Source: a virus (lineage: Duplodnaviria; Heunggongvirae; Uroviricota; Caudoviricetes). From it: 64,000 bases of DNA. The DNA is taken from positions 157,489 to 221,488 of IMG/VR virus record IMGVR_UViG_3300028914_000001. One strand, written 5' to 3'. Every line of letters begins with the position of its first letter. Position 1 is the stretch's first letter. A program made the translations under genes and the position numbers. Positions 30,358 to 53,984 of this stretch are shown in pieces. The notes under the pieces were generated by a model, which ran no database searches, was not told the origin of the DNA, and was given only the letters and a program-made list of their open reading frames with translations.

Positions 30358-32681
30358 TTTCAGGTCACTACACAGGGGAGCTTAAAACAGCTATCGACGA
30401 TGCCGCCGCACAGACTACCGACAGGGAAGGTGCATTCTACTCGATTCTGAATAAGTATGGCTTCTATGACATCGACGACGAAAACAACGGTCTAACCCCG
30501 TGGCAACGAGATTCGGTTCCAGATTACAACAAGCGACGCATGAGCGCACTCGCATCCGCAATCTCCGATATGATTAAGGATTTCCTTGGAAACGAGTCCT
30601 ACGGCGTGATGACAACTAAATTGGAAGAAATCATCAACAAGCTTGATGGCTTCCTTACATGTACCAAGTCAAAGACCGATACTTTGCAGGCAGGTATCTC
30701 CGCCAGTGGAGTTTTCGCCCCGGTCGGCGCCTCTGCAGAAAGCATGTATACAGCGAATGCCGCTGCAATGGGAATAAACCCGTATGACATTGACATTCTT
30801 CCGCCTCTCCTGATTGGATTGGGCGGACTTCCTATCAGCATGGGTTCATGCTTCCGTAGAGGACACTTTATGCCCGACTGGTCGTTCCTATATGACCATG
30901 AGATTAAGAAGAGTCCGACAATCTACGACTCGGAAGGAAGCCTATACATCGGTGCAGGCATCCCTCTCGACATCGGAGGCAGCACCCGTGAGATGGTTCT
31001 CAAAAAGATTTTTGCGGTAGTTACCGTTGACGAGAACGGCGAGCCGCAAGGTGATGTAAAGGGCGGCATTCAGGAAGAGCAATTTGAGCTTATCATGAAG
31101 GCATCCAATGCTGTTGTCGCCGGAAAGAGTTACAAAGACCTTGACAGCGATGTTAAAAACCTTAGCCTGACGGAATCACAGATTAGATTCTCCTTCTACC
31201 GCTATGTCCAAATGGCTGTGTGGGGCCCGATTGTATACAACCAGAACTGGCCTTACTACCATTGGGGCATGCTAAGCCACAATTCTTGCCCTGATTGCGT
31301 TAAAACCGCTTTGGTCAGCTACTTAAAGACTGCTGGTTTCGCTTGCGACGTAAGTGGAAACTTTGCGACATCAGCATTTTTGAGCTATTGCCTACGAACT
31401 GGAATGTATTACCATCTAGGCTACTCAAAACCAATCTCGATAGTTCCGCTCAAAGGGGACAGGTACATCCTTAACGGAACCGTAGTAACCCAAGACAAGA
31501 ATACAACGAGGTCAATTACCGTTGAAGGTGTTCCTCGTGACGAAAAACTCGCTAACTTATATTTTACTTACATTGCAGACATCCTTTCTCGACTGACATA
31601 CGGAACAAACCCGGAATCGCTCGACATGGATATGAGAAAACGCCGTTGCGACGAAGCAAACCTCATTTACAAGTATGTCGGATTTAATGCGCCGGAGTAC
31701 GGAACAGACCTATCTCGTATAGACAACCGCTGCAAGCGAATCAGCATGATTTCACGTAACTTGAAAGGCCTTGTCAACGCAAGAATCCTTGTCCACGAAA
31801 ACGTCGCATCCAGTTTACCCCCGGCAACCGACGTTACCATAGACAACAAGGCTAGCGAAGGCGAGATGTCAACAAGGACTAAGAACGTGATTACTTACCT
31901 CGCTCGTCTGGCTGGTGTAAAATATGTGATGGTAACTTCGCTTTACCGTAGTCCAGAAAAACAGGCGACCATCATGTTCAATAGCCTGCAAAAGAGTGGC
32001 CAGCCAACCGTCGCATACGGTTCACGGGGGCGAGCGGTAAATGACGAGTACGCTCGCATCTGGTACAAGTTTTATGGAAAGGGAAATGACGGTCTCGAAC
32101 CGAAGATTGCAAAGGACGGCTCAATAGTTACCGACCGTCTCGGAAAGCCAGTCTATGTACAGTCCTATGCCAAGGGGCCCTTCCCTCCTGGTTCTGCAGG
32201 TGCAAAGGCTGCACTGAACGCAATGATAGCAAAGTGCAAGGCATTAGGGTACGAAAACCCAGTCTCCAACCATACGAAGGACCCGAGCATTTCCCAATGT
32301 GTCGATATTGCGACTAGCGTATGTTATGCGAAGTTCCCGAAGGTTACGGAAGCACAGATGAAAAAATTCTCTTCAATCTGCTACATGTCATCCGAACCTT
32401 ACAAGAACAGCCCGAACGGAAAACAGGACAATACATATCAGACCCTTCTGATGGATTACTATGCTCCAAAGGGTTTTGGACCAAAAGAGGTGGACCCGTG
32501 CATCCACCTTGAAATCAGTCAGAAAGACCCTAAGTTGTCGATGTTCGATTCGGAAAACATGGACTTGACTCAGTTGCTACCAAAAATAGAGGTTGGCCTT
32601 GACAATAGCAACCTGACTGACGACAGCAACTGGGATAACGCCTACGCCAAGGACCACAACGACAAGCTTAACGCTTCTTAG
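30354..32681 (+). CDS. Modular peptidoglycan hydrolase: pesticin/T4-lysozyme-like plus M15-type Zn peptidase
   Basis: DWSFLYDHE..LYIGAGIPL..RRCDEANLI; VTSLYRSPEKQ..SNH..VDI..IHLE. Confidence 0.55.
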   Translation: MISGHYTGELKTAIDDAAAQTTDREGAFYSILNKYGFYDIDDENNGLTPWQRDSVPDYNKRRMSALASAISDMIKDFLGNESYGVMTTKLEEIINKLDGFLTCTKSKTDTLQAGISASGVFAPVGASAESMYTANAAAMGINPYDIDILPPLLIGLGGLPISMGSCFRRGHFMPDWSFLYDHEIKKSPTIYDSEGSLYIGAGIPLDIGGSTREMVLKKIFAVVTVDENGEPQGDVKGGIQEEQFELIMKASNAVVAGKSYKDLDSDVKNLSLTESQIRFSFYRYVQMAVWGPIVYNQNWPYYHWGMLSHNSCPDCVKTALVSYLKTAGFACDVSGNFATSAFLSYCLRTGMYYHLGYSKPISIVPLKGDRYILNGTVVTQDKNTTRSITVEGVPRDEKLANLYFTYIADILSRLTYGTNPESLDMDMRKRRCDEANLIYKYVGFNAPEYGTDLSRIDNRCKRISMISRNLKGLVNARILVHENVASSLPPATDVTIDNKASEGEMSTRTKNVITYLARLAGVKYVMVTSLYRSPEKQATIMFNSLQKSGQPTVAYGSRGRAVNDEYARIWYKFYGKGNDGLEPKIAKDGSIVTDRLGKPVYVQSYAKGPFPPGSAGAKAALNAMIAKCKALGYENPVSNHTKDPSISQCVDIATSVCYAKFPKVTEAQMKKFSSICYMSSEPYKNSPNGKQDNTYQTLLMDYYAPKGFGPKEVDPCIHLEISQKDPKLSMFDSENMDLTQLLPKIEVGLDNSNLTDDSNWDNAYAKDHNDKLNAS

Positions 32682-33783
32682 GGCGCCCGTATTTCATATT
32701 CAACATCATAATTCCAGCTTCGGAACTGTATGTGTGGGCCATGATAAATTCAGGGTCTACACAGCCGTCTGGCGTCATCTTGAATTCGGAGCAATTTAGA
32801 ACAGCCTCGTTAATATCCTTTACCTTGCCGCCGAAGCCCTTTGACTGAGGGTTGTCATTGCGGAATTTTGACCAGTCGAACCACCTGAACCCCATATTCA
32901 TAACAGTACGAAGGTCATCAATACCAGCGTCGTCAGCATCGAAGATGATAACGCCGTTTTCCTTGTACTCGGTGAAGTTCGGGTTTGCCTCGACAAAGCT
33001 CTTGAAATGTTTCAAACCACCGACAGCAACCGAGTTCTTGATAAAGGTAGAGTCGATTGCACCTTCAAGCATGAAGAACGGCCTGTTGAAATGTAGAAAG
33101 TCGCCATTGTACAACTCACGCTTAGCGCCCGCATAGTTTCGATAGCGCATCTTCGATTGGTCACTCAAATCTCTGGCATCGAACTGAACCCATGAACCAC
33201 CAAAACGGTAGTATGGAATAATCAAACGGTTTCCATACTCGTTCCCGGTAGGAAGACCATAAGCATTCAACTTCAAGGTTCCATCAGGGTTCTTATCCAA
33301 GAAGCGCTTATCCCTCTTGCATACGAACCAATCCTTATACACCTTTTCTCTTATGCGGCGGTTCTGGCAAAACTCAACAGCTCTCCGGGCATCGGCATCA
33401 TTCGGGTCATCAAGGGGGACAAGTTCACCTTCTTTGAACGGGTACGCACCCTCGACATAGACACGTTTGTGATGCTCCTGCGGATTTTTCTTACCCTCGC
33501 AATGCAAGGTAAAAATAAGCTTATTGTAAAGTTCAGGATATGACTCCTTGAACTCCCACATGACATGGTGCATCGGATGACATTTGTAGCAAACGAAGTT
33601 CCATGTATCCTTGTACACATATGCCTTGCGTTCAGGTTTCTGGAACTCGCTGACATTCATATTCCCGCAATACGGGCATACGAAGTTAAACGAGTTGAAG
33701 TCTTCAACCATGTGATACTGGCCGAAGGCAGTCTCAACTGCGTTTCTCATATCTGCATCAGGAATGTCCCTAAAATCATACAT
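32668..33783 (-). CDS. gp61: DNA primase, T4 gp61-like
   Basis: CPYCG...CYKC zinc finger; RLIIP; TOPRIM EGAIDS and FDAD. Confidence 0.9.
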   Translation of the reverse strand: MYDFRDIPDADMRNAVETAFGQYHMVEDFNSFNFVCPYCGNMNVSEFQKPERKAYVYKDTWNFVCYKCHPMHHVMWEFKESYPELYNKLIFTLHCEGKKNPQEHHKRVYVEGAYPFKEGELVPLDDPNDADARRAVEFCQNRRIREKVYKDWFVCKRDKRFLDKNPDGTLKLNAYGLPTGNEYGNRLIIPYYRFGGSWVQFDARDLSDQSKMRYRNYAGAKRELYNGDFLHFNRPFFMLEGAIDSTFIKNSVAVGGLKHFKSFVEANPNFTEYKENGVIIFDADDAGIDDLRTVMNMGFRWFDWSKFRNDNPQSKGFGGKVKDINEAVLNCSEFKMTPDGCVDPEFIMAHTYSSEAGIMMLNMKYGRPKKR

Positions 33784-38770: not shown

Positions 38771-40270
38771 TTAATATAGAATCTCTACCGCCTCTACTGG
38801 CTTTTCCTTCTTCTGCCGTTGTTGAGGCTGAGGCTGAGGCTGCTGCAGCGGAGGTTGTTGTGCCTGAGGCTGGGGACCTCGATACTGGTTCCTCTGTTCA
38901 AACTCTTCCTGCAACATCGATTCCTTTTGGATACTCTCGATAAGTTCCATATCCTCGGGGTCAATATCGCTGAGTCGCATGTGAGGCCAATCGACCTTTA
39001 CATTGAACTGAACATCAGCCGAGCCCATTCGGTTCTTGCTAATCGTCACGCACAGGAACCCTGCCTTTTTCAAGGCAACGTCACGAACGATGATGTAGTA
39101 GAAGTCCACCGTATCGCCAAGACCCATGGAACCTGATGTCTGGTCCATGCCGATATCCTTCATGCGGTAGCCAGCTCGTTGCATCTGCGTTCCCGTCAAG
39201 ATAGCCATATCCCTGTTGACGGCCATGTTTCTCAACTGTTCTGCGGCATACAAGATTTTCTGGTAACTGCCTTCATGCGGACTGTATGTACCCGCATTCG
39301 GGCTCATGATACCAATGTAGTCAACAACCAAGAAGTCAATCTTGACCCCTTCCAGCTGTTCCAATTCGGAAAGATAAGCCTCGATGTCATCAGGTGTAGT
39401 CTTACGGGTAGGCATCCAGTTGATGTACAAGTTACCAGGAGTGGCGAGTTCCGGGGCATGGGAATCTTGAAGTCTGACAATAACTTCCTCATCGTCCATC
39501 TTAGCGATGTCATAACGAGACACATCAAGAATAGCGCTTGTGACACGTTCCCAAATCTTCGCCGCATCAAGTTCAAGGCTGATATACACCACGTTGTAAC
39601 CGAGCGTGGCAGCAAATGCAGCCTCGTTAACCATGAACATCGACTTACCACCGCCAGATGTACCGCCAACAAGGCTTAGGCACTTGCGGAAATAACCACC
39701 ACATGTTCCCTGTGCATCAGGGGTTTCGCTTGTAAACCGTCTTATCGCCTCAATCTTAGATGGAATACTCTTTTCCATGCTACCAAGTCTTGCCTTAGCA
39801 GCCCTGGCATCACGAATATAATGTATACCCATGTTAGTATTAAGCCGGAAGTTTAGCGCATCCTGCAACTTCGGCATAATCCCACGCATGGCGGTCGGGT
39901 CCTTGCCATGCATGTGGAGGGCGTATTCTTCCATCAATCGTTGGGATACCTGAAACTTGAAATAATTTTCAATGGTCTCTTTCTTTATGTCAGGAGCGAT
40001 TACCCCAATAGGCTTCGTAATCTTTAAGAGCTGTTCCTTCGCCTCGTCACTATATCCGGGATTCTGGTTCAGACCAGTAACAAGTTCTTGGGCAGTCGGG
40101 TAACGACTATATTTCCGATGAAACGCATTAACAAGATGAACAATCTGCTTATTCGCCTTATCATCGAAATATTCTTCTTTCATCTTGTCAGTGATACGTA
40201 AACGGACATTTTCATCCTCAAAGAAGCATCTCAGGACATAATCTTCATCACTCAAATCCGCTACTATCAT
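38771..40270 (-). CDS. gp41: Replicative helicase, T4 gp41/DnaB-like
   Basis: Walker A GGTSGGGKS, YISLE, VVDYIGI, TGTQ, KNRMG. Confidence 0.92.
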   Translation of the reverse strand: MIVADLSDEDYVLRCFFEDENVRLRITDKMKEEYFDDKANKQIVHLVNAFHRKYSRYPTAQELVTGLNQNPGYSDEAKEQLLKITKPIGVIAPDIKKETIENYFKFQVSQRLMEEYALHMHGKDPTAMRGIMPKLQDALNFRLNTNMGIHYIRDARAAKARLGSMEKSIPSKIEAIRRFTSETPDAQGTCGGYFRKCLSLVGGTSGGGKSMFMVNEAAFAATLGYNVVYISLELDAAKIWERVTSAILDVSRYDIAKMDDEEVIVRLQDSHAPELATPGNLYINWMPTRKTTPDDIEAYLSELEQLEGVKIDFLVVDYIGIMSPNAGTYSPHEGSYQKILYAAEQLRNMAVNRDMAILTGTQMQRAGYRMKDIGMDQTSGSMGLGDTVDFYYIIVRDVALKKAGFLCVTISKNRMGSADVQFNVKVDWPHMRLSDIDPEDMELIESIQKESMLQEEFEQRNQYRGPQPQAQQPPLQQPQPQPQQRQKKEKPVEAVEILY

Positions 40271-42221: not shown

Positions 42222-43598
42222 TCATTCTTCCTGAGAATCTGTCGGAATTTCCTCTACTGGGCATTCCTTGGTTCCCGGTTGAACGCCGTTGTCGATGTCC
42301 TCTACGGTTACGGTTTCGCCCTTTTTCTTGCGACCTTTTGACTTCGGCTTCTTTTCCTTTTTCTTATCTTTGGTTTCATCCACCGATACAGGAACGACAT
42401 CCTCGAATGCGGCAAGAGCCTCCTCGGCGATTGCCTCCCGGTCAAACTTCGCCTTGATTTCAGCAGGGATACTTTCGAGCATTTCACGCCACTTCTTCAG
42501 ATTCTTCGGCGAAATATGCAGTTCCTTCATGATAGCCTGCGGCTTCACACCATCAGTCAGCATCTGCAACAGATGCTGGAACGGCTCGCTGCCCTCGATG
42601 ATGTTATAGCATTCCCGGTCGTAAACAATCTTTACGGCATCGTCCGAGACAGGAAGTCTAGCCGCATGGATATCTTCAAGAACCTTAGGATAGTCCTTTC
42701 CGCTCATGATGGAAGCAATGACTCTGCCAATAAGCTCCCCATCAAGGTTGTACTCGACCTTTTCATCGACAGGAGCTTCAACCTTTACTTCTTCGGCAAT
42801 TTCCTGAACCTTCGTTTCAACCTCTTCCTTGGCCTTAGTCGCCTTCGGCGGGAACCTAGGGGTAATTTCCGGGAACTTGTAGAGGTAGTAATGCCAGAAT
42901 GCACTTGCCTTTTCAGTGAAAGACTTATCGGACTCTTCGTCAACGGCATCTGACTCAAGAAGTTTGAAAATACGGACGGCACATTCAGTAAACCTTGGAA
43001 TCTGAGTCGTCAGAATATCCTTGTTCATCGGCTGCCAACGGGAGTCAATCCATTGAGCTTGATTTGCCGGAGTGAACGGGCTAGACAACGGATTACTGTT
43101 GACATCCTGCACGCTAAACATAATTGCACTCGACACAGGGAACTTTTCGTCGTCCATGGTGTACGTGTTGTAATCCTTCGCCTTGAACTCAAAACCGTCA
43201 TTTTCCCTGACGTATTCCTTATATAGCGTGATGGAACGGGCATGGAGCCGCTGAATAGCGTAGCTGACAAGGTTGCCGACGTTGAAATTGTCATGCTTTT
43301 CGGTGTAGATATACTCGTCAGTGGACAAGAACAGGCCCCAGTCACCGTTGCCGCAATGTTTTAGGAACGCCTTGATGATTTCGCTTACCTTCCTCCAACG
43401 TTCGTCAGCCTTGATAAAGACAAAACGGTCGCTTGCGTCGATAATTTCCTTCTTGGCTTCCTGGAACCATTCAGGTTCATCCTTCACGAAGATGTAAATT
43501 TTCTTAAACCCAACATTCTCGTGGTACTTGCACCACATTTTGAACTTCATCTTGGTTTTGTTAGCCAGTCTGGCCAATAGATATACTCTTGGATTCAT
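42222..43598 (-). CDS. GT2/GT92-like glycosyltransferase domain fused to an HTH and a charged tail
   Basis: WCKYH..VGFKKIYIF..DWGLFLSTDEYI; GVKPQAIMKELHISPKNLKKW. Confidence 0.5.
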   Translation of the reverse strand: MNPRVYLLARLANKTKMKFKMWCKYHENVGFKKIYIFVKDEPEWFQEAKKEIIDASDRFVFIKADERWRKVSEIIKAFLKHCGNGDWGLFLSTDEYIYTEKHDNFNVGNLVSYAIQRLHARSITLYKEYVRENDGFEFKAKDYNTYTMDDEKFPVSSAIMFSVQDVNSNPLSSPFTPANQAQWIDSRWQPMNKDILTTQIPRFTECAVRIFKLLESDAVDEESDKSFTEKASAFWHYYLYKFPEITPRFPPKATKAKEEVETKVQEIAEEVKVEAPVDEKVEYNLDGELIGRVIASIMSGKDYPKVLEDIHAARLPVSDDAVKIVYDRECYNIIEGSEPFQHLLQMLTDGVKPQAIMKELHISPKNLKKWREMLESIPAEIKAKFDREAIAEEALAAFEDVVPVSVDETKDKKKEKKPKSKGRKKKGETVTVEDIDNGVQPGTKECPVEEIPTDSQEE

Positions 43599-43696: not shown

Positions 43697-45115
43697 TTAA
43701 AACGGTGGGTCATCCCCAAACGGACTATCAAACACATGGTCAGCATTGATGTCTGGCACAGGTGATTGCTGCTGAATGCCCATAAGAGTTGCTGCCGGAA
43801 CCGCAGAAATCGGAGATTCCATATCCTCCTGAATACGGTCGATTTTGGCGGCCTGTGCATTCTTTTCGTTCATGAACGTCACGTTGCACATGCTAACTTC
43901 GGTCCTTGGGTGGAAAGCGTAGAATCCACGCTGGCGTAAATTCTTAATCAAATCTATTTGGTGCTTAGTGATACCAATGCTTTCCAACGACTCCGCTTGC
44001 ATAAATTCACCTGTACCAACACGGCTGCAAGCTTCGGTGATAGCAGACTTGATATTGTCCGGAGTGCAACTAAGGTCGATAAGGGTCTTGTTTCTAAGGT
44101 ACTGGTCAAGCCACCCTTCCCTCTTTGCCGTCTCGTAGATGTCGCCGCAGGTCTGGATGAACTTCCCCGCACCATCCTTTCCCACGCAGGTAGCCTTAGG
44201 GAAACCGGGCGTTTTAGGGTTAGGAACACACATTCCGTGAATATTATCGCTATCGTCACCAGAAACGATTTTCTTGGCGAGATATTCAGACGGGGAATCG
44301 CACGAGAGGAACTTGCCATTGAGATGGTCGTAGAATACCGCCTTGCTGCATTCAATCTGCATCATATCGCTATCTCTCGTAGCAATCACAATGCTGGTAT
44401 ACTTATCCTGCAAAGACGATACCGCACCATAAATAATGTCATCGCCTTCCGCACCGTCAAGTTGCACAACAGTCGCACGATAATACTTTCCGAGTTCAAA
44501 CGCAAACTTATCCTTGTAAGACTGCCACTCAGACTTAGGTGTCAATGCCGACCAATCACTATACTTGCGTTTTCCCTTGTAACTAGGAATAATCGGAGTT
44601 TTGCTTTCATTCTTAGACTTCTTGCTTACTTCGTAAAGATTCCACAGAAGGTCCTGTTTTTGCGGAGGAAGTTCTCCGAGAAGCTTATGGGGCTTATCCC
44701 TAAAAGTCTGGTATTCCTTAACGGCAATTCTGTCAACCGTATATTCTTCCTTCTTCTTGTCAGGCTTGCCGATACGGTAGGCATAGTTTTCCGTTTCCGT
44801 GTAGATGTAGGTATCATCGTGGTACACGATTGTATGCTTTCCGTAATAATCCTTGACGAAATCCTTTCTCCAAGAGAAACCGTCAACCGCAATGATGATA
44901 TCCAGCGGATTGAAACGCTGAATCAAATCATTCATCGCAGTGACCATCTTGTTGCGCCACAGACGGAGTTCATCTTCCTTGCTCTGAATACCATAATCGT
45001 CCCCAGCCTTTTCAGCAGCCTGGACCGAATGGATAGCCTGGTAAGCGACTGACGACCAGTCGATAACCATAAGCCTGTTTGTGTCATACTTGTAGGTAGT
45101 TGGGGTACTTATCAT
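43697..45115 (-). CDS. rnh: RNase H / 5'-3' exonuclease (T4 rnh, FEN family)
   Basis: LMVIDW, VDG.SWRK, YKGKR, EGDDII, RDSDM.Q, GD.SDNI. Confidence 0.9.
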   Translation of the reverse strand: MISTPTTYKYDTNRLMVIDWSSVAYQAIHSVQAAEKAGDDYGIQSKEDELRLWRNKMVTAMNDLIQRFNPLDIIIAVDGFSWRKDFVKDYYGKHTIVYHDDTYIYTETENYAYRIGKPDKKKEEYTVDRIAVKEYQTFRDKPHKLLGELPPQKQDLLWNLYEVSKKSKNESKTPIIPSYKGKRKYSDWSALTPKSEWQSYKDKFAFELGKYYRATVVQLDGAEGDDIIYGAVSSLQDKYTSIVIATRDSDMMQIECSKAVFYDHLNGKFLSCDSPSEYLAKKIVSGDDSDNIHGMCVPNPKTPGFPKATCVGKDGAGKFIQTCGDIYETAKREGWLDQYLRNKTLIDLSCTPDNIKSAITEACSRVGTGEFMQAESLESIGITKHQIDLIKNLRQRGFYAFHPRTEVSMCNVTFMNEKNAQAAKIDRIQEDMESPISAVPAATLMGIQQQSPVPDINADHVFDSPFGDDPPF

Positions 45116-45206: not shown

Positions 45207-48200
45207 ATGTTTACGACCCTTCAAAAGGAATATGCTATACTGTTCTACATCCGTTATAAGCTAGGGCAAGAAGACAACAACGGCTTCTTGCATGAACTGT
45301 ATACTGAAAAGAATGTCAAAAGCATTCTTGAAAAGCTGGTAAACAACAAGACTAAGGACACTTCGACTATCAGTACCGAGCAGGTCGTTGAAAGAGTATT
45401 GCCATCCGTCAACATAGACACCTTGACCAACCCGAGAGCAACACACCCTAAATTCAACGTCCTTCCATACAACCCGGTAAGCTTCATGGAACTCTACATG
45501 GGTAAAACGATAAACAACGTGCTGATGAATATGAAGGAGAGGATATTCGTAGACGACATTACGGATGCAAAGGACGGCATGGCCGCATATTTTGTATCGA
45601 TATTTTCTCGAAATATGATGGTTAACGATAATTTTGCGAAATTTGCAACCATCGAACAACATCCATCAGCAGATAAAATCGTCCATACGCTCCGCACGCA
45701 ATTCCCGGACTCCTACCTTGCAAATGATACCGAAGCACTATCCAAGTATGCCACCCAGATGGTTCGGGAAAACTTCACCCACAAAGATTTGGGTACAGTA
45801 ATCATGTACCTCCAAAAGAAATTCGGAAACTCGCTCAACAGAACATCTATCGTCAATGCTATCGCAAGTGCCTCCAAGTATAAAGAAAATGATGATGACA
45901 CCACGTTCGATGAAATTCGAGACACTGCTGAAGAAAGCACGATGGCAATGGTGCAATCGACATCTAGCATAGACAACATGTTCAAAACCTCGGCAAAGTA
46001 CAGGTTCTCTGGAACCATGAAATACAAGAGAGGGGCGAAAGATTCCAGCGGAAATACCGCACCTAACACAATCGAGCTCAGTTTAAGAAAGCAGGATATG
46101 GAAGGCAAACTACATATAGACTGCTTTACCCAATTCATCACCGTCCTAAACAAGCTTCTTCACCTTGAAGGACTGCCCGGAGTAAATACGAGCCAATATA
46201 ATAGCCTGAACACAGTACTGCTCTCAGAGGAACAGTACCACGCACTATTCCCGGAATACTTCGTTACTGTCGGAATCCTTAAAACTAAGGAGAAGACAGC
46301 TTCAGAAATGGGCACCACCACGATGAAAAGCGGTGACGAATCAACGAACATTATCGACCGTTATACTGGCGAGGACGAAGACAAATATGACAGCGAGGAT
46401 GAAGAAACATACGACTCTTCCGTTCTTACCCTCGGAAAGACCAAAAAACTTATGCTGGCAAAGATGCTGGCAACACTTAATGGACACCCGGAAACTGTCC
46501 CGGACCAAATCGAATCGGCAAAAGGAAAGAAATCCGCTATTTACGAACTGAACCGTATTTTCATCACGGAATTATTCAACTCCCCATATCCCACAATACA
46601 GGCGTTGGTCGGCTTCCTTACGCATGACGAACTTCCGCCAGATATGGAATCCCATGACGACGAGCTGTTCATACTCAGACAGAAATACCTTAAAGACAAT
46701 GCGGAGGACGCAAAAGTATTTGGTGAACGAGACACCAATGTCAAGGCATTCGCTACCGTACTTAGCGAACTCTCAAAGGCCGCACATATGGGCCCAAACG
46801 ACAGATTGCCGTCACAGAATATCGTCATTTCCAACGGAGCCAATCAATACGTACTGACTGGATTGCCTAGCGTAGTTAACGCAATGGTAGCGCATGCAAT
46901 CAAGGGACAATACATTGACGGGATAACGGTCACAAGCAAAAATCCTATATACGACGCAATCAACTTCCTCATCAAATCCAATCTGCTCCGCAAAAACGGA
47001 AAAACTTACGTACTTGTAACAGACGCAAACCAAATAAACAGTGTCGTAGACTCGCTTCCATGGAAACAGCTCGAAACCCTTCATCACACGATGATGGTAA
47101 CTGCCCTTCACAACTGTTCGTACCTCTACAAGCAAAACGGCTGGGTTAAAATGACTCCCCAGGAAAGTTCACGGCACGAGTACGAGAAAATCAAGGATGA
47201 CGCCAAGACTAAGGATGATTTTTACTTCACAGGAAAACTTGTCAAGATTATGGAATCCGTCCAAGGAAATGTCAAACCATATTTTGACGACCTGAGAGAC
47301 ATCAACGATGTTATCGCCCGCATCAAAATGGATTACGGCATAACAAGCGTAGAACCAGCACAAGCCCCGACGGTTGACGAAAACACCCTTTCGGTTAACG
47401 ACCGTGTAATACAGATGTTCAGCACAGACGATTCTTCGGAAGCTATCGACAGCCTTTCCCAAGATTACTATCTAAGAAGTGTCGAAAGCAAGTACGAGGA
47501 AATCGTTGACAAAAAGTGCAAGGAAGTTACCGCCGCACTCAGGCAGAACAAGCACCTTGACGAGGACACCAGAAAAGCCCTTATCAGGAAGTTTGGCCAT
47601 GTCGGCGGGAAAACCAAGATAATCAACAGGGTATTCGACGGTGTCAAGAAGTCAGCATCAGGTAACGTCGCAGAGAAATTCAACAAGCAGGACGAACAGA
47701 GGATGTTCCAGATTGCACAAGATGTAATCCGGCTCTACAACTTCGTCCGAAACGACGTTGAAAAACATAACCCGACGATTGCAAAAGAATTTCCGCAAAC
47801 CCGCCAGTATGTCCAATCAGCAGACCTCGACACTATGTCAAAGGGCCAGAGCCTAACCGGGAAGAACTATATCGAAAATGGCTCTGCCGTAGACAAAGAC
47901 TTTTTACTGAACGCATACCTCATTGATGTACTTTTCGAGACCATATACCTCATGACCATCCTCTTCGACCTCCCGGCACGAACCGAGTACAGCGTACAGG
48001 ATATCATGCAAATGTCCGACGTGTCTGAAATGATACGCTATATCAAGGAAAACATGAATATCGCCATGGAAGGCAACATGGTCTACACTCAGCTCCTGAC
48101 TGCAATCAAGAGAAAGTCTAACATACTGTTCAATTCTCCGATGTTGAATATAATCATCGCAGTCATGTTGAGCAATCCTGACCTGAAGCAGTTGAGCGTC

Positions 48201-48320
48201 GGTGAAGCCAACAAGCTTAACGGAAAGAATAGACACTTGACTTCTGGAAAGGTATTGTCAGACATCGCCGCACACCAAATGGCACATGTTACAGCGAATT
48301 CGAAAAAAAGAACCCGCTAG
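45207..48320 (+). CDS. Hypothetical 1037-aa late protein, probably virion-associated
   Basis: Long ORF, GAGG upstream, late box; no motif recognised. Confidence 0.6.
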   Translation: MFTTLQKEYAILFYIRYKLGQEDNNGFLHELYTEKNVKSILEKLVNNKTKDTSTISTEQVVERVLPSVNIDTLTNPRATHPKFNVLPYNPVSFMELYMGKTINNVLMNMKERIFVDDITDAKDGMAAYFVSIFSRNMMVNDNFAKFATIEQHPSADKIVHTLRTQFPDSYLANDTEALSKYATQMVRENFTHKDLGTVIMYLQKKFGNSLNRTSIVNAIASASKYKENDDDTTFDEIRDTAEESTMAMVQSTSSIDNMFKTSAKYRFSGTMKYKRGAKDSSGNTAPNTIELSLRKQDMEGKLHIDCFTQFITVLNKLLHLEGLPGVNTSQYNSLNTVLLSEEQYHALFPEYFVTVGILKTKEKTASEMGTTTMKSGDESTNIIDRYTGEDEDKYDSEDEETYDSSVLTLGKTKKLMLAKMLATLNGHPETVPDQIESAKGKKSAIYELNRIFITELFNSPYPTIQALVGFLTHDELPPDMESHDDELFILRQKYLKDNAEDAKVFGERDTNVKAFATVLSELSKAAHMGPNDRLPSQNIVISNGANQYVLTGLPSVVNAMVAHAIKGQYIDGITVTSKNPIYDAINFLIKSNLLRKNGKTYVLVTDANQINSVVDSLPWKQLETLHHTMMVTALHNCSYLYKQNGWVKMTPQESSRHEYEKIKDDAKTKDDFYFTGKLVKIMESVQGNVKPYFDDLRDINDVIARIKMDYGITSVEPAQAPTVDENTLSVNDRVIQMFSTDDSSEAIDSLSQDYYLRSVESKYEEIVDKKCKEVTAALRQNKHLDEDTRKALIRKFGHVGGKTKIINRVFDGVKKSASGNVAEKFNKQDEQRMFQIAQDVIRLYNFVRNDVEKHNPTIAKEFPQTRQYVQSADLDTMSKGQSLTGKNYIENGSAVDKDFLLNAYLIDVLFETIYLMTILFDLPARTEYSVQDIMQMSDVSEMIRYIKENMNIAMEGNMVYTQLLTAIKRKSNILFNSPMLNIIIAVMLSNPDLKQLSVGEANKLNGKNRHLTSGKVLSDIAAHQMAHVTANSKKRTR

Positions 48321-50065
48321 AACTGGCGACGGTAATTCTTGAGAAGGCCCTCTGCGGCCTTCTTCTTCTTTTTCTCCAACTGCTGGGCCCGTTTCTCCGC
48401 CTTTTCCTTTCGCTTCTGCTTGATGTCGTCAAGCTTCACATCAGCAGCAACCTTACCGTTAAGGTCTTCTATCGTAACTGGAATCTTGTCGGCATTGTAA
48501 TATTTCATCCTTTCACGGAAATGGCGAACCATGTAGTTCTCGTTGACGTGGTCTCCCAGTGTACGGCCATGAACCATGTATGAAGCGTCATCGACAATAT
48601 CGTAACAAGTGGCAATTTCCTTGCCCGGACACTTACGGACGATACGTCCAATAGACTGCATAATCATGTACATCGACTTTCCTGGGTCGCCAAACACAAG
48701 GTTGTTCAACTGCTTTACATTCACGCCAGCCTGCAAGCACCCGTATGTACCGAGAAGGATGTGGCCATAAGATGTATCCATATCCTGTCTGATAACATTT
48801 CGTGCGTTCGCCTTGACATCACCCTTGATGATGCTATACTTAAACTCTGGATGATTTTCCTGCAAGTAAGCCGCAACACGTTCCATCGGCTCGATATTTC
48901 GGAACAGGATTACCGTGTTCTGGTCCGTCGTTATCCTCTTCTCGTTGATAAGCATGTCAAGAATATCAAATCGGCTTCGGTTGCCAGTCACGACGGCATA
49001 CTCCTCATCAAACTTCGAGTAGCAGATTGTCGTTCGGCAATCCAAAGGATATGGCACAAAAAGACCAACCACTCGTGCAGGCGTGATAATGCCTTTCTCG
49101 GCTAGTTCCCAAAGGCTGACAATGTGATACTTCTTTCCGAGAGACGACTCTATATAGGCAGCTTCAAGACCCTCATCAGGAATCGTACCCGATACGCCTA
49201 TCTTAAAGTTTTCTGCCGAGGTGCAATAGTCAAGAATCTGACGCAGCACCGGGCCACGGCATCCTTGACACTCGTCAACAATCACCGCATCAAACCGCTT
49301 GAAGAAGGACGGCTCCTTGTTCTGCAGACTCTGCCACGTCGTTATCACAATAGGTTTCAACATGACTTCTTCGCCAAGGTTCAGCTCGGCAAGTTTCTTC
49401 TTTTGGGCGGCGGTCAGCTTATCCTTCGAATCGCCATAGATTAGCGTACAGTTGTCGTGCGCCTCGTCCCATGAATAGTCGTCATAGAAGTTCTGCATCA
49501 ACTGGACTACCAGCCCGGAGTTCGGAACGACAACGGCAATCTTCTTGTGTTCAACCTCGGTCATGTAACGGGCCATCACATAGATTGACAGCGACTTTCC
49601 TGATGCAGTACAGGCCTTCAACGAGCCACGACGATGCAGCATGGCTTGATAAATCAATTCAACTTGATGGTCATAGAGGGACAGCTTGAACCCCTTCTTG
49701 CGGTCGTGGATGTTCAGCGTGTCGGCATACTTGATGATTTCATCCCTGGTCAGAACAACCTTTGGCGTGAACATCGAGTGAATCCTCGGCGACAACTTGA
49801 AGCCGATACCCGGAAACCGTCCTTTGAGCAAGGTGCAAACCCTGGCTATCAGACCGATGGGGATAGTCCGCTCTTCACTCTCATAGAAGTTGACATACTC
49901 CTTATGGTATCCATTTTTATACTTTTCCGTGTATGTAGCCTGCTTGTCCTCGTACTTGATGGCACTGTTCAGGTAATTGTAGACCTGTCTGGTTTCAAAG
50001 TCATTGCCTTCGTATACGGTGACTTGCGCTAAGTTATCTTTCAAGAAGTCAAAATAAACAATCAT
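48317..50065 (-). CDS. uvsW: SF2 helicase UvsW
   Basis: TASGKS, VVVP, TWQSL, DECQ, SGT, GVN, QSIGR, YDIVDD. Confidence 0.9.
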   Translation of the reverse strand: MIVYFDFLKDNLAQVTVYEGNDFETRQVYNYLNSAIKYEDKQATYTEKYKNGYHKEYVNFYESEERTIPIGLIARVCTLLKGRFPGIGFKLSPRIHSMFTPKVVLTRDEIIKYADTLNIHDRKKGFKLSLYDHQVELIYQAMLHRRGSLKACTASGKSLSIYVMARYMTEVEHKKIAVVVPNSGLVVQLMQNFYDDYSWDEAHDNCTLIYGDSKDKLTAAQKKKLAELNLGEEVMLKPIVITTWQSLQNKEPSFFKRFDAVIVDECQGCRGPVLRQILDYCTSAENFKIGVSGTIPDEGLEAAYIESSLGKKYHIVSLWELAEKGIITPARVVGLFVPYPLDCRTTICYSKFDEEYAVVTGNRSRFDILDMLINEKRITTDQNTVILFRNIEPMERVAAYLQENHPEFKYSIIKGDVKANARNVIRQDMDTSYGHILLGTYGCLQAGVNVKQLNNLVFGDPGKSMYMIMQSIGRIVRKCPGKEIATCYDIVDDASYMVHGRTLGDHVNENYMVRHFRERMKYYNADKIPVTIEDLNGKVAADVKLDDIKQKRKEKAEKRAQQLEKKKKKAAEGLLKNYRRQF

Positions 50066-50222
50066 AATAAATGGATAAACTAGGGGTGAAATTGATGTTT
50101 TTCTAAACTAAAATATCTTTTTTACACCCGAAGTTTATATTTTAATATAAAAAAATGAGAACATATAGTGTTACCTGGAGGCAAAGGAGATAAAATTTCT
50201 ATGAAACTTTCGTATTGGACGC

Positions 50223-50251
50223 TTGACAAAACTTCACTTTTATTGTAGCTT
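50223..50251 (+). promoter_or_regulatory. sigma70-like promoter TTGACA-17-TAGCTT, near-leaderless
   Basis: Canonical -35; ATG 8 nt after the -10. Confidence 0.65.
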
Positions 50252-50259
50252 TAGCGACG

Positions 50260-51804
50260 ATGAATTCGAACCTTGAACTTTCTTTACGTATTTTAGACCA
50301 GTTTTCCGAAACTGACAGCCGTTACTCTTTCGATAAAATGCTGATTCCTAACAGTATTTTTGACTTCATGATGGCTAAAGCGGAAAATCTCAAAGGTGTG
50401 GAAAGGAAAAACTTCGAATTTTTGCTGTATATAGTCAACACGGTATATCGCCGCTACCAGATAGCCTTCAACCTGGCTACCAAGCATAACTGGAAAATCG
50501 ATATTGACAAGTGGGCAGTCCCCATTTACTCCAAAATCTATGACAGGATACTCGGTTCCAACTACTTGGAATACGTACACATTCTCGAACAATGGGGCAT
50601 CATTGGCCGTAGCCGTTCCTACATCAAGGGAAGCAAGGATATTCCGGGAAAATGCAAGCATTATTGGTTCACACCCAAGTTTTTAACCTATGTTCAGCGT
50701 TATTTGCACACTAGGGCACAGGAAGAAGCCGGAGATATCAAGAAAAGAAAGGGTGGTGTCCGTGTAGTCATGGTGACCAACCCCCGTCTTTATCGAAAAT
50801 TGGCCGAAAGAGCCGAAGAAGTTCATTCAGAACAAATGAACATGCCTGAAATTAAGGAACTTTACGAAGACTTGACGCATTTTAGCATCGATGAAGACGA
50901 AAGTTACGATATTTTGGGCAATCTTGTCGATAGCGGTTCGATTCCCGTCGAAAGATTGACCTCTGAAATGAACAAAGTCAAGCTTTTCAATAGCTACACG
51001 ACCGATAAATACGCTCTTTACTGCAAACGTGACCCGTATGGCCGTGTTCATACTAACATCACCCAGTTGAAAAAAGAGGTTAGAAAGAGCTGCATCTACT
51101 GTGATGGCAAGCCGACGGTCGAAATCGACATCAAGAGTTCTCAGGGTGCATTCTTGTATCGTGTTCTTGACCGATACATTTCTAATTTTGATGGCCGAGA
51201 ACATATTGTGATTTCTCCTAAGGGAGAGAATTCGGAAGCCTACTGGAATTCCTTTGAGGAAGACGAATGCATCTCGGCATTCCACTCCGAATTGGATAGA
51301 TACAGAAATCTGCTTGTTTCTGGTGGTTTGTATGAATACTTCCTTAACTATGTAAACAAAACTTTGCATACGAATGTAGACCGTAATAAGGTAAAGAAAG
51401 AATTCCTTACATGCCTTTTCTGCGGACGTTTCTATTCTAAGAAAAAGCATAAGCTTGTCGAAGCCATTCAGAAGCTCTGGAAGGAAGCATTCCCTAACCT
51501 CTACAAGGCAATCCAGATTATCAAGCGTGGGCACTACTCTGAGTTGGCCCATGAGCTGCAACGTACTGAAAGCCACCTCATTTTCAGCGTGGTTTATCGC
51601 AGAATCAAGGACGAATTGCATTGCCCTGTTTGTACCGTACACGATAGCATCATAGTGTCCTCCGATGTTGCTACCCGTGCCAAGCAAATCTTCGACGACG
51701 CTTTGAAGGAATTGGAAATCCCTACCTTTACCGAGCAGGAACAGATGGAAGCAACGATTGAAGACACCTTTATTGCTGACAAGACCTTGACAACCAAGAT
51801 TTAA
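50260..51804 (+). CDS. wHTH plus PolA/T7-RNAP-superfamily palm-domain protein without exonuclease domains
   Basis: DPYGRVH (DxxGR), motif A EIDIKSSQ, motif B RNKVKKEFLTCLF, LQRTES, motif C TVHDSI. Confidence 0.7.
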   Translation: MNSNLELSLRILDQFSETDSRYSFDKMLIPNSIFDFMMAKAENLKGVERKNFEFLLYIVNTVYRRYQIAFNLATKHNWKIDIDKWAVPIYSKIYDRILGSNYLEYVHILEQWGIIGRSRSYIKGSKDIPGKCKHYWFTPKFLTYVQRYLHTRAQEEAGDIKKRKGGVRVVMVTNPRLYRKLAERAEEVHSEQMNMPEIKELYEDLTHFSIDEDESYDILGNLVDSGSIPVERLTSEMNKVKLFNSYTTDKYALYCKRDPYGRVHTNITQLKKEVRKSCIYCDGKPTVEIDIKSSQGAFLYRVLDRYISNFDGREHIVISPKGENSEAYWNSFEEDECISAFHSELDRYRNLLVSGGLYEYFLNYVNKTLHTNVDRNKVKKEFLTCLFCGRFYSKKKHKLVEAIQKLWKEAFPNLYKAIQIIKRGHYSELAHELQRTESHLIFSVVYRRIKDELHCPVCTVHDSIIVSSDVATRAKQIFDDALKELEIPTFTEQEQMEATIEDTFIADKTLTTKI

Positions 51805-51836
51805 TAAACTATATTTGTGGAAAAAGGACTAATATC

Positions 51837-52826
51837 ATGGATATCCAATACTTCAAAAACCCTAACATGAACGTGCTCAACTGCACACACTATGACCTTG
51901 ATGGAGTGGGGTCCCATCTTATCATCAAGACAATCTTTCCTAACGCAAAGTACGCCAAGATGTACTACGGCAAGGATAATGACCTCTTGACATTCAACAC
52001 TATTCCTAACAAGGAACAGTACAACGCCATCATCTTTACCGATTATACGCCAGTAAAATTCATGGACAGTGTTCGTGCAACTGGCATTCCTACCATGGTT
52101 CTTGACCACCATGCTAGCGCATCTGATTTCAACGACCCGGCTAATGCAATCATTATCGACAAGTCTGCTTGCGGCGCCCGTCTTGCCTATGATTTCTACC
52201 GTGATGTCAAGGATATTTCCCACCTCGAAGAACTCATCAATTATATCGACACGTTTGACCGTTGGATTAGAACCGATAAGGCACGATTCGAACATGCATA
52301 CAAGATGAACATGCTGTTCAAGGACAAGTACAAGCTCAATTTCGATGCTTGGATTGAAGCCTACAAGGATGGCCATACCGAATTCACGGAAGATGAAATT
52401 GCTTTCCTCAACCAGATTGACAGTGAAGTTGAACAGACATACAATAATCTGCAGTTTACAGACCTTCCTGGTGGCGGTGTATTGACCCGTTGCGACAAGC
52501 ATTCGACAGAAGTCGGTATTCGTATTCAGGACAGCGAAAAGTATAACTACTGGATTAACATCTATAATAACAAGCGTGAAAACAAAATCGGTTTGATGTT
52601 CCGTGGATATAACCCGAACATTTCCTTTGACAAGTTTGCTAGAAAGATTGAAATTCATGTTCCTGGCTCGAACATGGGTGGACACGGACTGTCATGTGGA
52701 GGCAAGGCCGATAATGAGACTGATGCAATGCGAATGGTCGCCATGTCAATCCCGTACATTCAGCAGCAGATTGACGGCACCTTTGTACAGGACGAAGAAA
52801 TGCTGAGTAAGCCTGACGAAATATAA
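51837..52826 (+). CDS. DHH-family phosphoesterase
   Basis: THYDLDG, FTD, LDHH, SACGA, GGH; AATAAACTAT upstream at 51803. Confidence 0.88.
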   Translation: MDIQYFKNPNMNVLNCTHYDLDGVGSHLIIKTIFPNAKYAKMYYGKDNDLLTFNTIPNKEQYNAIIFTDYTPVKFMDSVRATGIPTMVLDHHASASDFNDPANAIIIDKSACGARLAYDFYRDVKDISHLEELINYIDTFDRWIRTDKARFEHAYKMNMLFKDKYKLNFDAWIEAYKDGHTEFTEDEIAFLNQIDSEVEQTYNNLQFTDLPGGGVLTRCDKHSTEVGIRIQDSEKYNYWINIYNNKRENKIGLMFRGYNPNISFDKFARKIEIHVPGSNMGGHGLSCGGKADNETDAMRMVAMSIPYIQQQIDGTFVQDEEMLSKPDEI

Positions 52827-52856
52827 ACTCTTGGTGCAAAAACCCAAGCAGTCAAC

Positions 52857-53984
52857 ATGAAAATTCTACAAATCAGGACGGTGCTTGCAACCGTCCTTCT
52901 TTCTTTATGTATCGGCCAGGTTTATGCCTGGTCTCTTCTATCCAACGCTGTCAACTCGGTTCTAAACCACGACATGTCGTTCGCCTTCTCTCTTGCCATC
53001 CTGTTCCTCGGCCTGTCTGCAGCTTTCATGGGAAAGTTCGTGGAAAGAAACCCGAAGGCGACCTACATCATGTCCGTGATTTTCTTCGTTGCCGGATTCC
53101 TCCTAAGTGGATTCGCTTGCAGCGTAGGAAGCGTCGGGATGTTCTATGCATCGTATGGCGTACTCTTCGGATGCGCATGCGGTCTCGGGTATGTAGCCCC
53201 AATCAAGACGCTGATGCTCTACTTCCGTCATAACAAGGCTGTCGCATCTGCCATTGCCATCCTATCGTTCGGGTTGGCAAAGTCTGTTGCAAGTCCGCTG
53301 TACACATACCTTACCTCAACCTATGCTATCGACCAAGTGTTCTATCTCCTTGCTCTAATCTATACTGTTCCGCTTATCGTGACATCGTTCCTGTTCAGGA
53401 AGTTCCCGGTCAATTACAAACCACCTATGGTCGAGACAATCGATATCGGAAAGACGGTTAGAACATTGCCTTACATTTCAATCTGGTTGTTCTTCTTCCT
53501 CAACATCGCTTGCGGCCTAGCCTTCATCAGTCAGGAAGCTCAACTATATTCCCACTATGGCGTGGCAATCGGGATGGCAACCTTGCTGTGTACATTGAGT
53601 GCTGTTTTCAATGCTGGCGGGCGTTTTGGGTTTGCTTGGATTAGCGACAAGTTCGGTCGATACGTTCCGTACATCATCCTGTTCGCATTGAGTTCCCTGC
53701 TGTGCTTGATTAACTTTGGATTTGCTGGACTGGGCCTGTTCGTTGTCAGCGTCATGCTCATCAACGCTTGTTATGGCGGAGGTTTCTCCGCTTTGCCTGC
53801 ACTGCTCGCAAGCAAGTACGGGATAACGAATACATCAACCATCCATTCTCTGACATTGAGCGCTTGGGGTATTGCAGGAATTGCTTCACTCTTCTTGAAG
53901 CAGCTCCCGGTTGATACCTTGTTCATCACATGCTTCATACTGTATGGCTTCAACCTTCTGTTGCTGTACCTGAGCAAACGATAA
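52857..53984 (+). CDS. MFS transporter, oxalate/formate antiporter (OFA)-like
   Basis: GQVYAWS, AFSLAILFLGLSA, GLGYVAPIKTL, NAGGRF..SDKFGR, YGGGFS; about 11-12 hydrophobic segments. Confidence 0.85.
   Translation: MKILQIRTVLATVLLSLCIGQVYAWSLLSNAVNSVLNHDMSFAFSLAILFLGLSAAFMGKFVERNPKATYIMSVIFFVAGFLLSGFACSVGSVGMFYASYGVLFGCACGLGYVAPIKTLMLYFRHNKAVASAIAILSFGLAKSVASPLYTYLTSTYAIDQVFYLLALIYTVPLIVTSFLFRKFPVNYKPPMVETIDIGKTVRTLPYISIWLFFFLNIACGLAFISQEAQLYSHYGVAIGMATLLCTLSAVFNAGGRFGFAWISDKFGRYVPYIILFALSSLLCLINFGFAGLGLFVVSVMLINACYGGGFSALPALLASKYGITNTSTIHSLTLSAWGIAGIASLFLKQLPVDTLFITCFILYGFNLLLLYLSKR

Follow-up and report, generated by a model that had tools for sequence, protein, structure and literature searches.

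The 64,000-nucleotide stretch of DNA analysed here (the window; positions 157,489 to 221,488 of IMG/VR virus record IMGVR_UViG_3300028914_000001, from the Caudoviricetes) carries an open reading frame (ORF) of 514 residues that resembles a small family A polymerase, and the question that it raises is what such an enzyme would do in a T4-like phage that has a family B DNA polymerase (PolB) of its own. An earlier note, made from the sequence alone, had read the ORF as a compact polymerase of the PolA/T7 RNA polymerase (RNAP) superfamily with an N-terminal winged helix, accessory to a T4-type PolB replisome, and our analysis supports this view. Sequence and structural model together indicate that the protein is very probably a catalytically intact, exonuclease-less, minimal member of the superfamily, with a core of ~300 residues behind an N-terminal winged-helix domain of ~190. 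With similarly high confidence we assign to the core a short thumb, a T/DxxGR hairpin, a palm with two invariant aspartates and small RxxxK fingers, and it is just as probable that the single-copy gene is conserved in a large clade of huge T4-like phages. The protein is firmly predicted to be a template-dependent polymerase accessory to the PolB replisome. More tentatively, and with a little less than even prospects, we propose that it may be a winged-helix-targeted enzyme that begins chains de novo and supplies replication with RNA or ribonucleotide-containing primers.

The ORF exists as described in the earlier note, and every motif quoted there was located: the winged helix-turn-helix (wHTH) segment (Y102-I115/Y121-G124), DPYGR (D258-R262), DIKSSQ (D290-Q295), R375-x3-K379-x7-F387 and VHDS (V460-S463). 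These motifs are not chance resemblances, as they are conserved in an alignment of 123 diverse relatives that share 18-61% identity, from which all of the following counts are taken. R262, R275, D290, Y358, K379, K422, E437, H461 and D462 are invariant (123/123), while H264 and Q434 are each kept in 122 sequences, D258 in 120, S463, which completes the HDS of motif C, in 113 and S438 in 112. Residue 295, at the steric gate, is Gln in 122 relatives and His in one, and is never Glu. Position 387 is Phe in 109 and Tyr in 13, and position 375 is Arg in 95 and Lys in 18. The absence of exonuclease domains was likewise borne out: no known domain, exonuclease included, is detectable, because Pfam, PHROGs and NCBIfam return nothing credible for the polymerase or for nine of its relatives, and Pfam gave no match to the polymerase, including PF00476 and PF00940, even at E<=10.

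Coordinates in the window of the polymerase gene, its motifs and the other features discussed.
Feature	Position	Strand	Details
Whole ORF (P0001)	50260..51804	+	wHTH domain and minimal family A-superfamily polymerase core, 514 residues
N-terminal domain	50260..50835	+	residues 1-192
Winged helix in N-terminal domain			H91-98, H102-111, wing strands 115-117/133-137
Polymerase core	50836..51759	+	residues ~193-500; short helical thumb, palm, small fingers
T/DxxGR hairpin	51031..51084	+	D258-P-Y-G261-R262-V-H264-T-N266-x-T268 ... R275; aligns with GGRMY...ER of divPolA2
Motif A	51127..51144	+	D290-I-K-S-S-Q295; catalytic Asp, Gln at steric gate; from conservation, divPolA2 alignment and model strand E284-291
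Y358	51331..51333	+	where family A DNA polymerases have the "DIH" His; 123/123; weak collinear hhalign alignment to GDIH of T7 DNA polymerase
Motif B (O-helix)	51382..51423	+	R375-x3-K379-x3-L383-x3-F387-C388; aligns with R518/K522/Y526/Y530 of T7 DNA polymerase
Q434-R-T-E437-S438 helix	51559..51573	+	position of Klenow Q849 / T7 DNA polymerase Q615
Motif C	51634..51648	+	T459-V-H461-D462-S463; second catalytic Asp at beta-hairpin turn
Pairs in the weak T7 DNA polymerase alignment			Y358=H of GDIH; R375=R518; K379=K522; L383=Y526; F387=Y530; Q434=Q615; HDS=H653-D654-E655
Sigma-70-type promoter-like site	50223..50251	+	TTGACA-17 nt-TAGCTT; ends 8 nt before ATG
UvsW-type superfamily 2 helicase	48317..50065	-	divergent neighbour; T4 UvsW 2oca, E 1.7e-44; ResIII/Helicase_C
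DnaG-type primase	32668-33783		
DnaB-type helicase	38771-40270		
5'-3' exonuclease	43697-45115		
1037-residue ORF	45207-48320	+	between 5'-3' exonuclease and uvsW
DHH phosphoesterase, then MFS transporter	51837-53984	+	PF01368; PF07690, 375 residues, E 1e-16
"Family 3" ORF	42222-43598	-	~460-560 residues; relatives e.g. L024:3608-5296
Upstream motif TATAAACTA(T)	1031(-), 7512(-), 13310(-), 13339(+), 23786(-), 25381(-), 29584(-), 29613(+), 45176(+), 58026(-), 61708(-), 63022(+)		

An AlphaFold model built from 34 homologues was confident (predicted local distance difference test score 83.8, predicted template modelling score 0.77) and revealed a PolA/T7 RNAP superfamily core preceded by a winged helix. 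The core has the thumb-palm-fingers fold of family A DNA polymerases (DNAPs), with catalytic aspartates in motifs A and C, and its palm has the canonical layout, with D290 at the end of β-strand 284-291 and H461-D462 at a hairpin turn. Structure comparison gave the best score to Pol theta (4x0p; Z 13.5, 257 residues aligned, root mean square deviation (rmsd) 4.2), followed by Klenow and Aquifex Pol I (both Z 13.2), apicoplast Pol (Z 12.9) and T7 DNAP (Z 12.2). The catalytic core also resembles those of T7-like single-subunit RNAPs (T7 RNAP, Z 10.6, 243 aligned, rmsd 3.3; N4 RNAPII, Z 9.2), and Foldseek concurs with the superfamily fold (E 1e-5 to 1e-3). In the N-terminal domain of the model, a helix-turn-helix is followed by a β-hairpin wing, as in winged-helix domains. 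R275 and D290 lie 15 residues apart in the polymerase, and the corresponding Klenow spacing, R682 to D705, is 23 residues. A "short last thumb helix" has been described for RNAPs and CCPol (PMC7581432), and the 15-residue spacing, set against that of Klenow, would fit this description.

The virus genome is complete (422,150 bp, with terminal repeats) and T4-like, with a Gp23-type capsid protein and a gp20-type portal. As the earlier note had supposed, it encodes a PolB, matched at genome positions 370568-372052 within a 983-residue open frame. The 514-residue protein is thus not the replicase, because the genome provides this PolB together with a DnaG-type primase, a DnaB-type helicase, a gp32-like protein that binds single-stranded DNA (SSB), UvsX, UvsW and a 5'-3' exonuclease. 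The polymerase-like gene occurs once in the genome, and PF00476 has no match anywhere in it, with controls matched in 10 genomes. The Jug phages, which encode RpoC, were set aside as a match, as PF00623 is not found in this genome (PMC12880540).

The gene also keeps replication company in its relatives. In 27 of 40 viral loci, including those of polymerases with only 33-35% identity, the gene has that of a UvsW-type helicase as its divergent neighbour upstream, and further upstream in these loci stand the 5'-3' exonuclease (20 loci), a protein with a glycosyltransferase family 2 (GT2) domain and a Rad50-like ATPase. In a lineage with ~24% identity (L041, L042, L047, L051), the gene is found directly upstream of an ORF matching phrog_17 ("DNA polymerase"), which is followed by Nudix and AAA+ genes. 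Given the uvsW context on one side and the phrog_17 context on the other, two very distant lineages therefore keep the gene in replication modules. The phrog_17-matching ORFs (401-429 residues; L041, L042, L044, L047, L049, L051; e.g. L042:11185-12471) match only the C-terminal part of the profile (positions 1016-1226 of 1445). In five loci they come immediately behind the polymerase gene, and in L049 the match lies four ORFs further downstream; by their sequence they may be split or truncated replicative polymerases.

The gene might have been taken for a singular oddity; instead, its family is very large. When 1.84 billion representatives of 50%-identity clusters were searched exhaustively with a profile, 7,774 proteins were recovered at E<=1e-3, 5,955 at <=1e-10 and 1,927 at <=1e-30. 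Most are 380-470 residues long and are matched end to end, including the N-terminal domain, and nearly all of the 7,774 are unnamed and located on huge-phage contigs. An initial search had found 58 relatives of ~500 residues, none named, on contigs of up to 439 kb, and tblastn placed relatives in 595-735-kb "huge phage" records (LR7565xx). A few relatives carry the automatic names "putative DNA polymerase I" or "family A palm domain-containing protein"; pipelines have therefore already noticed the fold, and the family itself is not described. The jumbo-phage survey of Iyer et al. does not mention it (PMC7824862), a feature search of the ESM Atlas returned unnamed clusters only, and megablast of the region against phages gave no match. 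Fused forms were sought among longer relatives and none was found, which is weak evidence. The related contigs derive from rumen samples, and the family is a large one, in huge phages of rumen and gut, with no Pfam, PHROG or NCBIfam model. In a scan of GTDB genomes, relatives were seen on only three contigs (L217, L218 and L219; 317 kb, 148 kb and 31 kb), all from rumen metagenome-assembled genomes (MAGs). The MAGs in which these contigs, with close relatives, are filed bear the labels Bacteroidaceae, Prevotella and Fibrobacter; the contigs are probably huge-phage DNA that was mis-binned with bacteria and are therefore unreliable as evidence of host.

What kind of polymerase this is depends on a few active site residues. 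In Klenow, E710, Y766 and E883, and in T7 RNAP, G542 and Y639, matter for sugar choice or catalysis. To place the family at these positions we used profile alignments, of which that with divPolA2 was the strongest. By sequence, divPolA2 is the closest published kind (Yutin et al., Virol J 2024, PMC11348598; representative AUR84708, Vibrio phage 1.063.O). The two cores are homologous (hhalign probability 95.2-95.3%, E 2.9e-8 and 2.1e-8 over 177-189 columns, motifs in register), with D290 aligned to D256, Q295 to E261 and H461-D462-S463 to F-D-E; D256 and E261 are invariant in divPolA2, and its D-Y-K-A-F-E is plainly, on sequence grounds, the DYSQIE of PolA. The alignment with the T7 DNAP profile is collinear and statistically weak (E 0.014). 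Shallow T7 DNAP and RNAP profiles gave probabilities below 4%, against 95% for divPolA2, and alignments with single T7 and N4 sequences and shallow T7-like profiles were insignificant, though collinear at motifs B and C. A phmmer search of PDB sequences and a search with our A1 family profile found no match, and with the deeper A3 profile the top match among all PDB sequences was N4 RNAPII, aligned exactly at motif B and at the T-V-H-D-C of motif C; with an E of 0.055, this match is no more than suggestive. Motif B of the polymerase is alignable with the R..K..M..Y of N4 RNAPII as well, and motif C with VHDE of T7 DNAP, TVHDC of N4 RNAPII and VFDE of divPolA2. As far as they can be tested by the divPolA2 and weak T7 DNAP alignments, the equivalences proposed in the earlier note hold: the gate is Gln, the Y766/Y639 position is Phe and motif C is HDS. 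The roles that this note suggested, those of a primase, an origin-transcript enzyme or an unusual nucleotidyltransferase, stay conjectural.

Its phrase "mixed DNA-pol/RNA-pol signatures" is an accurate description of this active site. The Asp form of DxxGR appears in the translations of N4 gp15/gp16, as do D-x-[ST]-[CS]-[SN]-G, R-x3-K-x3-M-x3-Y-G, H-S-x-D and H-D-[SC], and the T7 RNAP motifs follow the same pattern. Family-wide features that lean towards RNAPs are the Asp of DxxGR, [N/S]-S at motif A +3/+4, HD[S/C] in motif C, Y358 in place of the DIH His and an acid at Q434+3. The full T7-like set is nevertheless not present, as motif A +5 is Gly, R+8 is Met and R+12 is invariably Tyr in T7-like RNAPs and N4 RNAPII, where this family has Gln, F/Y/L and Phe; the specificity loop and T7-type N-terminal domain of single-subunit RNAPs are also absent, and N4 RNAPII (gp15+gp16) consists of two chains and depends on gp2 and SSB. 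Nor does the protein carry the trio of the family A DNAPs, the gate Glu of DYSQIE, the motif B Tyr and the HDE Glu, which are replaced by Q295, F387 and S463. Compared with Klenow, Taq, T7 gp5 and Pol theta, it lacks a PF00476 match and both the 3'-5' and 5'-3' nucleases, its thumb and fingers are much smaller, and the DIH His is Tyr.

The likeness to divPolA2 extends beyond the core. Those ~430-residue phage proteins have divergent PolA palm and fingers, lack an exonuclease, carry a globular domain of unassigned family at the N-terminus and are encoded besides a regular PolB, as here; in BFVD, Barbavirus and Aeromonas-phage protein matches rank above canonical PolAs. There are also differences. 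DivPolA2 retains the Glu of D-Y-K-A-F-E, the Tyr and F-D-E, in place of which D-I-x-[NS]-S-Q, Phe and H-D-S stand in this family, hhalign detects no similarity between the N-terminal domains (probability 0.5%), and divPolA2 genes lie in variable neighbourhoods in contrast to the conserved uvsW/replication context. The A1 profile did not find divPolA2 in the Vibrio phage 1.063.O genome. The family does not group with any characterised family of known function, as divPolA2 itself is uncharacterised, its authors having left open whether it is a repair DNAP or an RNAP (PMC11348598).

A second comparison is with the TV-Pols and the SCCmec CCPol-MP primase, which share a minimal superfamily A core without nucleases and for which a role as primase-polymerase beside the main replicase is predicted or shown (PMC2579912; PMC7581432). 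The core features of TV-Pols, a bihelical thumb, an Arg hairpin, a two-Asp palm, RxxxK fingers and no nuclease, are all found in the polymerase; these features are superfamily-wide and therefore indicate resemblance, not membership. TV-Pol genes are linked to a D5-type helicase or to a resolvase, integrase or transposase, which the polymerase loci lack, the neighbours being instead UvsW, the 5'-3' exonuclease, DHH, MFS or a PolB-like ORF. The A1 profile had no match in the TV-Pol-bearing phage Ma-LMM01, an empty first-look search that shows little. CCPol differs in keeping E710 and F762 and using deoxyribonucleoside triphosphates (dNTPs), its gate Glu being E174, and in that its accessory module is a separate OB-fold protein rather than a fused winged helix; it is a de novo DNA primase only with this DNA-binding partner (PMC7581432).

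Transcription signals around the gene bear on when it would be expressed and on what it would transcribe, if anything. The earlier note had given the gene a canonical TTGACA promoter. The -35 element (50223-50228) is perfect and the spacer is 17 nt, but the -10 element TAGCTT (50246-50251) matches consensus at only 3/6 positions, and a consensus scan did not list the site. At the same position, relatives with 81-83% protein identity have TTGCTG or TTGCTA, 17 nt and TATATT; thus, a sigma-70-type promoter is plausible, and TTGACA itself is not conserved. The 8-nt spacing from -10 to ATG is maintained in relatives, and no Shine-Dalgarno sequence precedes the polymerase gene, whereas 37% of the genes in the genome have one, which, at the sequence level, suggests that the mRNA is leaderless or near-leaderless. 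The site would fit, by its sequence, the early promoter class of the phage, of which there are 18 copies of cTTGACAAAA-N-ATTTAATTAGGTATATTTATA (-35 TTGACA, 17-nt spacer, -10 TATATT) at genome positions 4093-28495, plus 97680, 417892 and 421615. Most lie in one same-strand block, which is probably the early region.

A second upstream motif, TATAAACTAT, also given as TATAAACTA(T), has 53 copies in the 422-kb genome. Of these, 42 precede a start codon on the same strand by no more than 60 nt, with a typical distance of ~30-35 nt. It looks like the phage's counterpart of the T4 late promoter TATAAATA, and is found before the 1037-residue ORF and not before the polymerase gene. By analogy with T4, both enriched motifs would imply that general phage transcription relies on the host RNAP. 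The uvsW-pol intergenic region (50066-50190) is highly conserved in relatives, with blocks GGATAAACTAGGG, AACTAAAATATCTTTTTT and GTGAGAACATATAGTGTTA. It contains an imperfect inverted repeat (50075-50091 / 50122-50138; single-stranded DNA fold z -2.97), the arms of which hold opposed late-promoter-like cores, GATAAACTA on the plus strand at 50074-50082 and TATAAACTT on the minus strand at 50139-50131. We do not claim the hairpin at 50075-50138 as a structure, given that covariation is absent and one relative (L008) does not keep the right arm, and Rfam gave no match on 49500-52500.

How, then, might the enzyme work? In the mechanism that we tentatively favour, the winged-helix domain would hold the enzyme at particular phage DNA sites or structures, and this hold would give a minimal PolA core the grip on the template required for a primer-free start, by analogy with the promoter-binding domain of T7-type RNAPs and the MP subunit of the CCPol primase. 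In two known cases, an accessory DNA-binding module turns PolA cores into de novo initiators (PMC7581432). The change from Glu gate, Tyr and HDE to Gln, Phe and HDS may be read as loss of the strict ribonucleotide block. Expressed early or in the middle period from the sigma-70-type promoter, together with the divergent uvsW, the enzyme could then synthesise short chains, either RNA or ribonucleotide-containing, by which replication is primed or triggered, with initiation of the origin or R-loop type. We favour a de novo, ribonucleotide-accepting priming enzyme because the winged helix is conserved family-wide, because the gate Glu, one mutation away and kept in divPolA2 and CCPol, is absent in 123/123 relatives, and because motif C is of the RNAP type; the accessory replication role is further supported by the uvsW, 5'-3' exonuclease and Rad50-like context and by the phrog_17 context in two divergent lineages. 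The bolder version, in which the family is an unrecognised class of minimal single-subunit polymerase that initiates de novo, uses ribonucleotides for origin or R-loop priming and has in its Gln/Phe pocket neither the DNAP nor the T7 RNAP solution, we put forward with considerable doubt.

Several observations weigh against ribonucleotide priming. Structure Z scores are higher to DNAPs than to RNAPs; the residue at R375+8 is F/Y in 82/123 relatives (Leu383 in this protein), which is DNAP-like, where RNAPs have Met; to our knowledge, no T7-like RNAP has Phe at the Y639/Y766 position; and Gln, which is isosteric with Glu, could block a 2'-OH all the same. The winged-helix call has a weak Z (5.7 or less), and such domains can also serve protein contacts. 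The phage already encodes a DnaG-type primase, and the promoters for its general transcription look to be of the host type. The synteny with uvsW and the 5'-3' exonuclease suits a repair role equally well, and an exonuclease-less, primer-dependent DNAP for repair, gap filling or recombination-associated synthesis is an unlikely but serious alternative, in which the enzyme would form with UvsW and the exonuclease a "split Pol I" or act like Pol theta, the winged helix serving as a substitute thumb or DNA clamp. However, nearly all family A DNAPs carry the gate Glu and the motif C Glu, as do divPolA2 and CCPol, while this family has Gln and Ser, gap filling is normally done by a T4-type PolB, and a generic repair polymerase needs no sequence- or structure-targeting winged helix. 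Less probable still is a dNTP-using de novo primase-polymerase like CCPol-MP or the predicted TV-Pols, with the fused winged helix replacing the single-stranded DNA-binding subunit. The minimal core architecture that defines TV-Pols (PMC2579912), the precedent of a PolA core made a primase by a DNA-binding partner (PMC7581432) and the replication-module context all agree with it; the Gln in place of the Glu that CCPol keeps beside F762 (PMC7581432), the lack of a D5-type helicase, integrase or resolvase at the loci, the resident DnaG-type primase and, weakly, the empty A1 search of Ma-LMM01 do not.

The RNAP-like residues and the N4 RNAPII match could also point to a general phage transcriptase, a minimal single-subunit RNAP for one gene class (e.g. 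middle) whose own promoters would be read by the winged helix, and neither a multisubunit RNAP (PF00623) nor a T7-type RNAP (PF00940, for which the controls also matched nowhere) was detected across the genome. We nevertheless consider this role very unlikely. The abundant motifs, 18 sigma-70-type early and 53 T4-late-like, look to be of the host RNAP type, leaving no obvious niche for a general phage RNAP, no long conserved T7-style promoter class emerged from the upstream motifs, and the conserved context is one of replication and recombination, not transcription. It is similarly improbable that the palm fold has been turned to other ends, such as template-independent tailing, a nucleotide signal or decoy for counter-defence, or non-catalytic DNA binding. 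The DHH phosphoesterase and other nucleotide-metabolism genes directly downstream, and the Nudix gene near the polymerase gene in distant relatives, would suit such a use, but the downstream island is kept only in close relatives and the invariant, full template-dependent motif set argues against loss of catalysis or templating.

The gene is thus placed among the minimal, divergent PolA-type phage polymerases, in a very large undescribed family with a Gln/Phe/HDS site and a winged helix. Because three positions that matter for sugar choice or catalysis in the superfamily have changed family-wide, the family is a natural experiment on the choice between ribonucleoside triphosphates and dNTPs, and it also bears on the DNAP-to-RNAP transition proposed for TV-Pol-like ancestors. 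If it is indeed a priming RNA polymerase, no other one-chain enzyme of the PolA/T7 superfamily that synthesises RNA would be as small, and it would stand as a living intermediate between the DNA and the RNA polymerases. The enzyme may also account for the way in which 400-kb T4-like genomes begin to replicate without sole reliance on host RNAP transcripts. A self-contained polymerase of ~500 residues with a built-in DNA-targeting domain is also a possible tool enzyme.

Some other genes near the polymerase are less widely kept. Directly downstream, the DHH phosphoesterase gene is followed by one for an MFS transporter, an unusual cargo for a phage, and this island is kept only in close relatives. 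The same is true of the 1037-residue ORF (8 loci), which has no Pfam or PHROG match. The family 3 ORF, by contrast, is a conserved neighbour. In relatives it has a GT2 domain (PF13704), with the Rad50-like ATPase on one side and the 5'-3' exonuclease on the other, and it may take part in modifying DNA.

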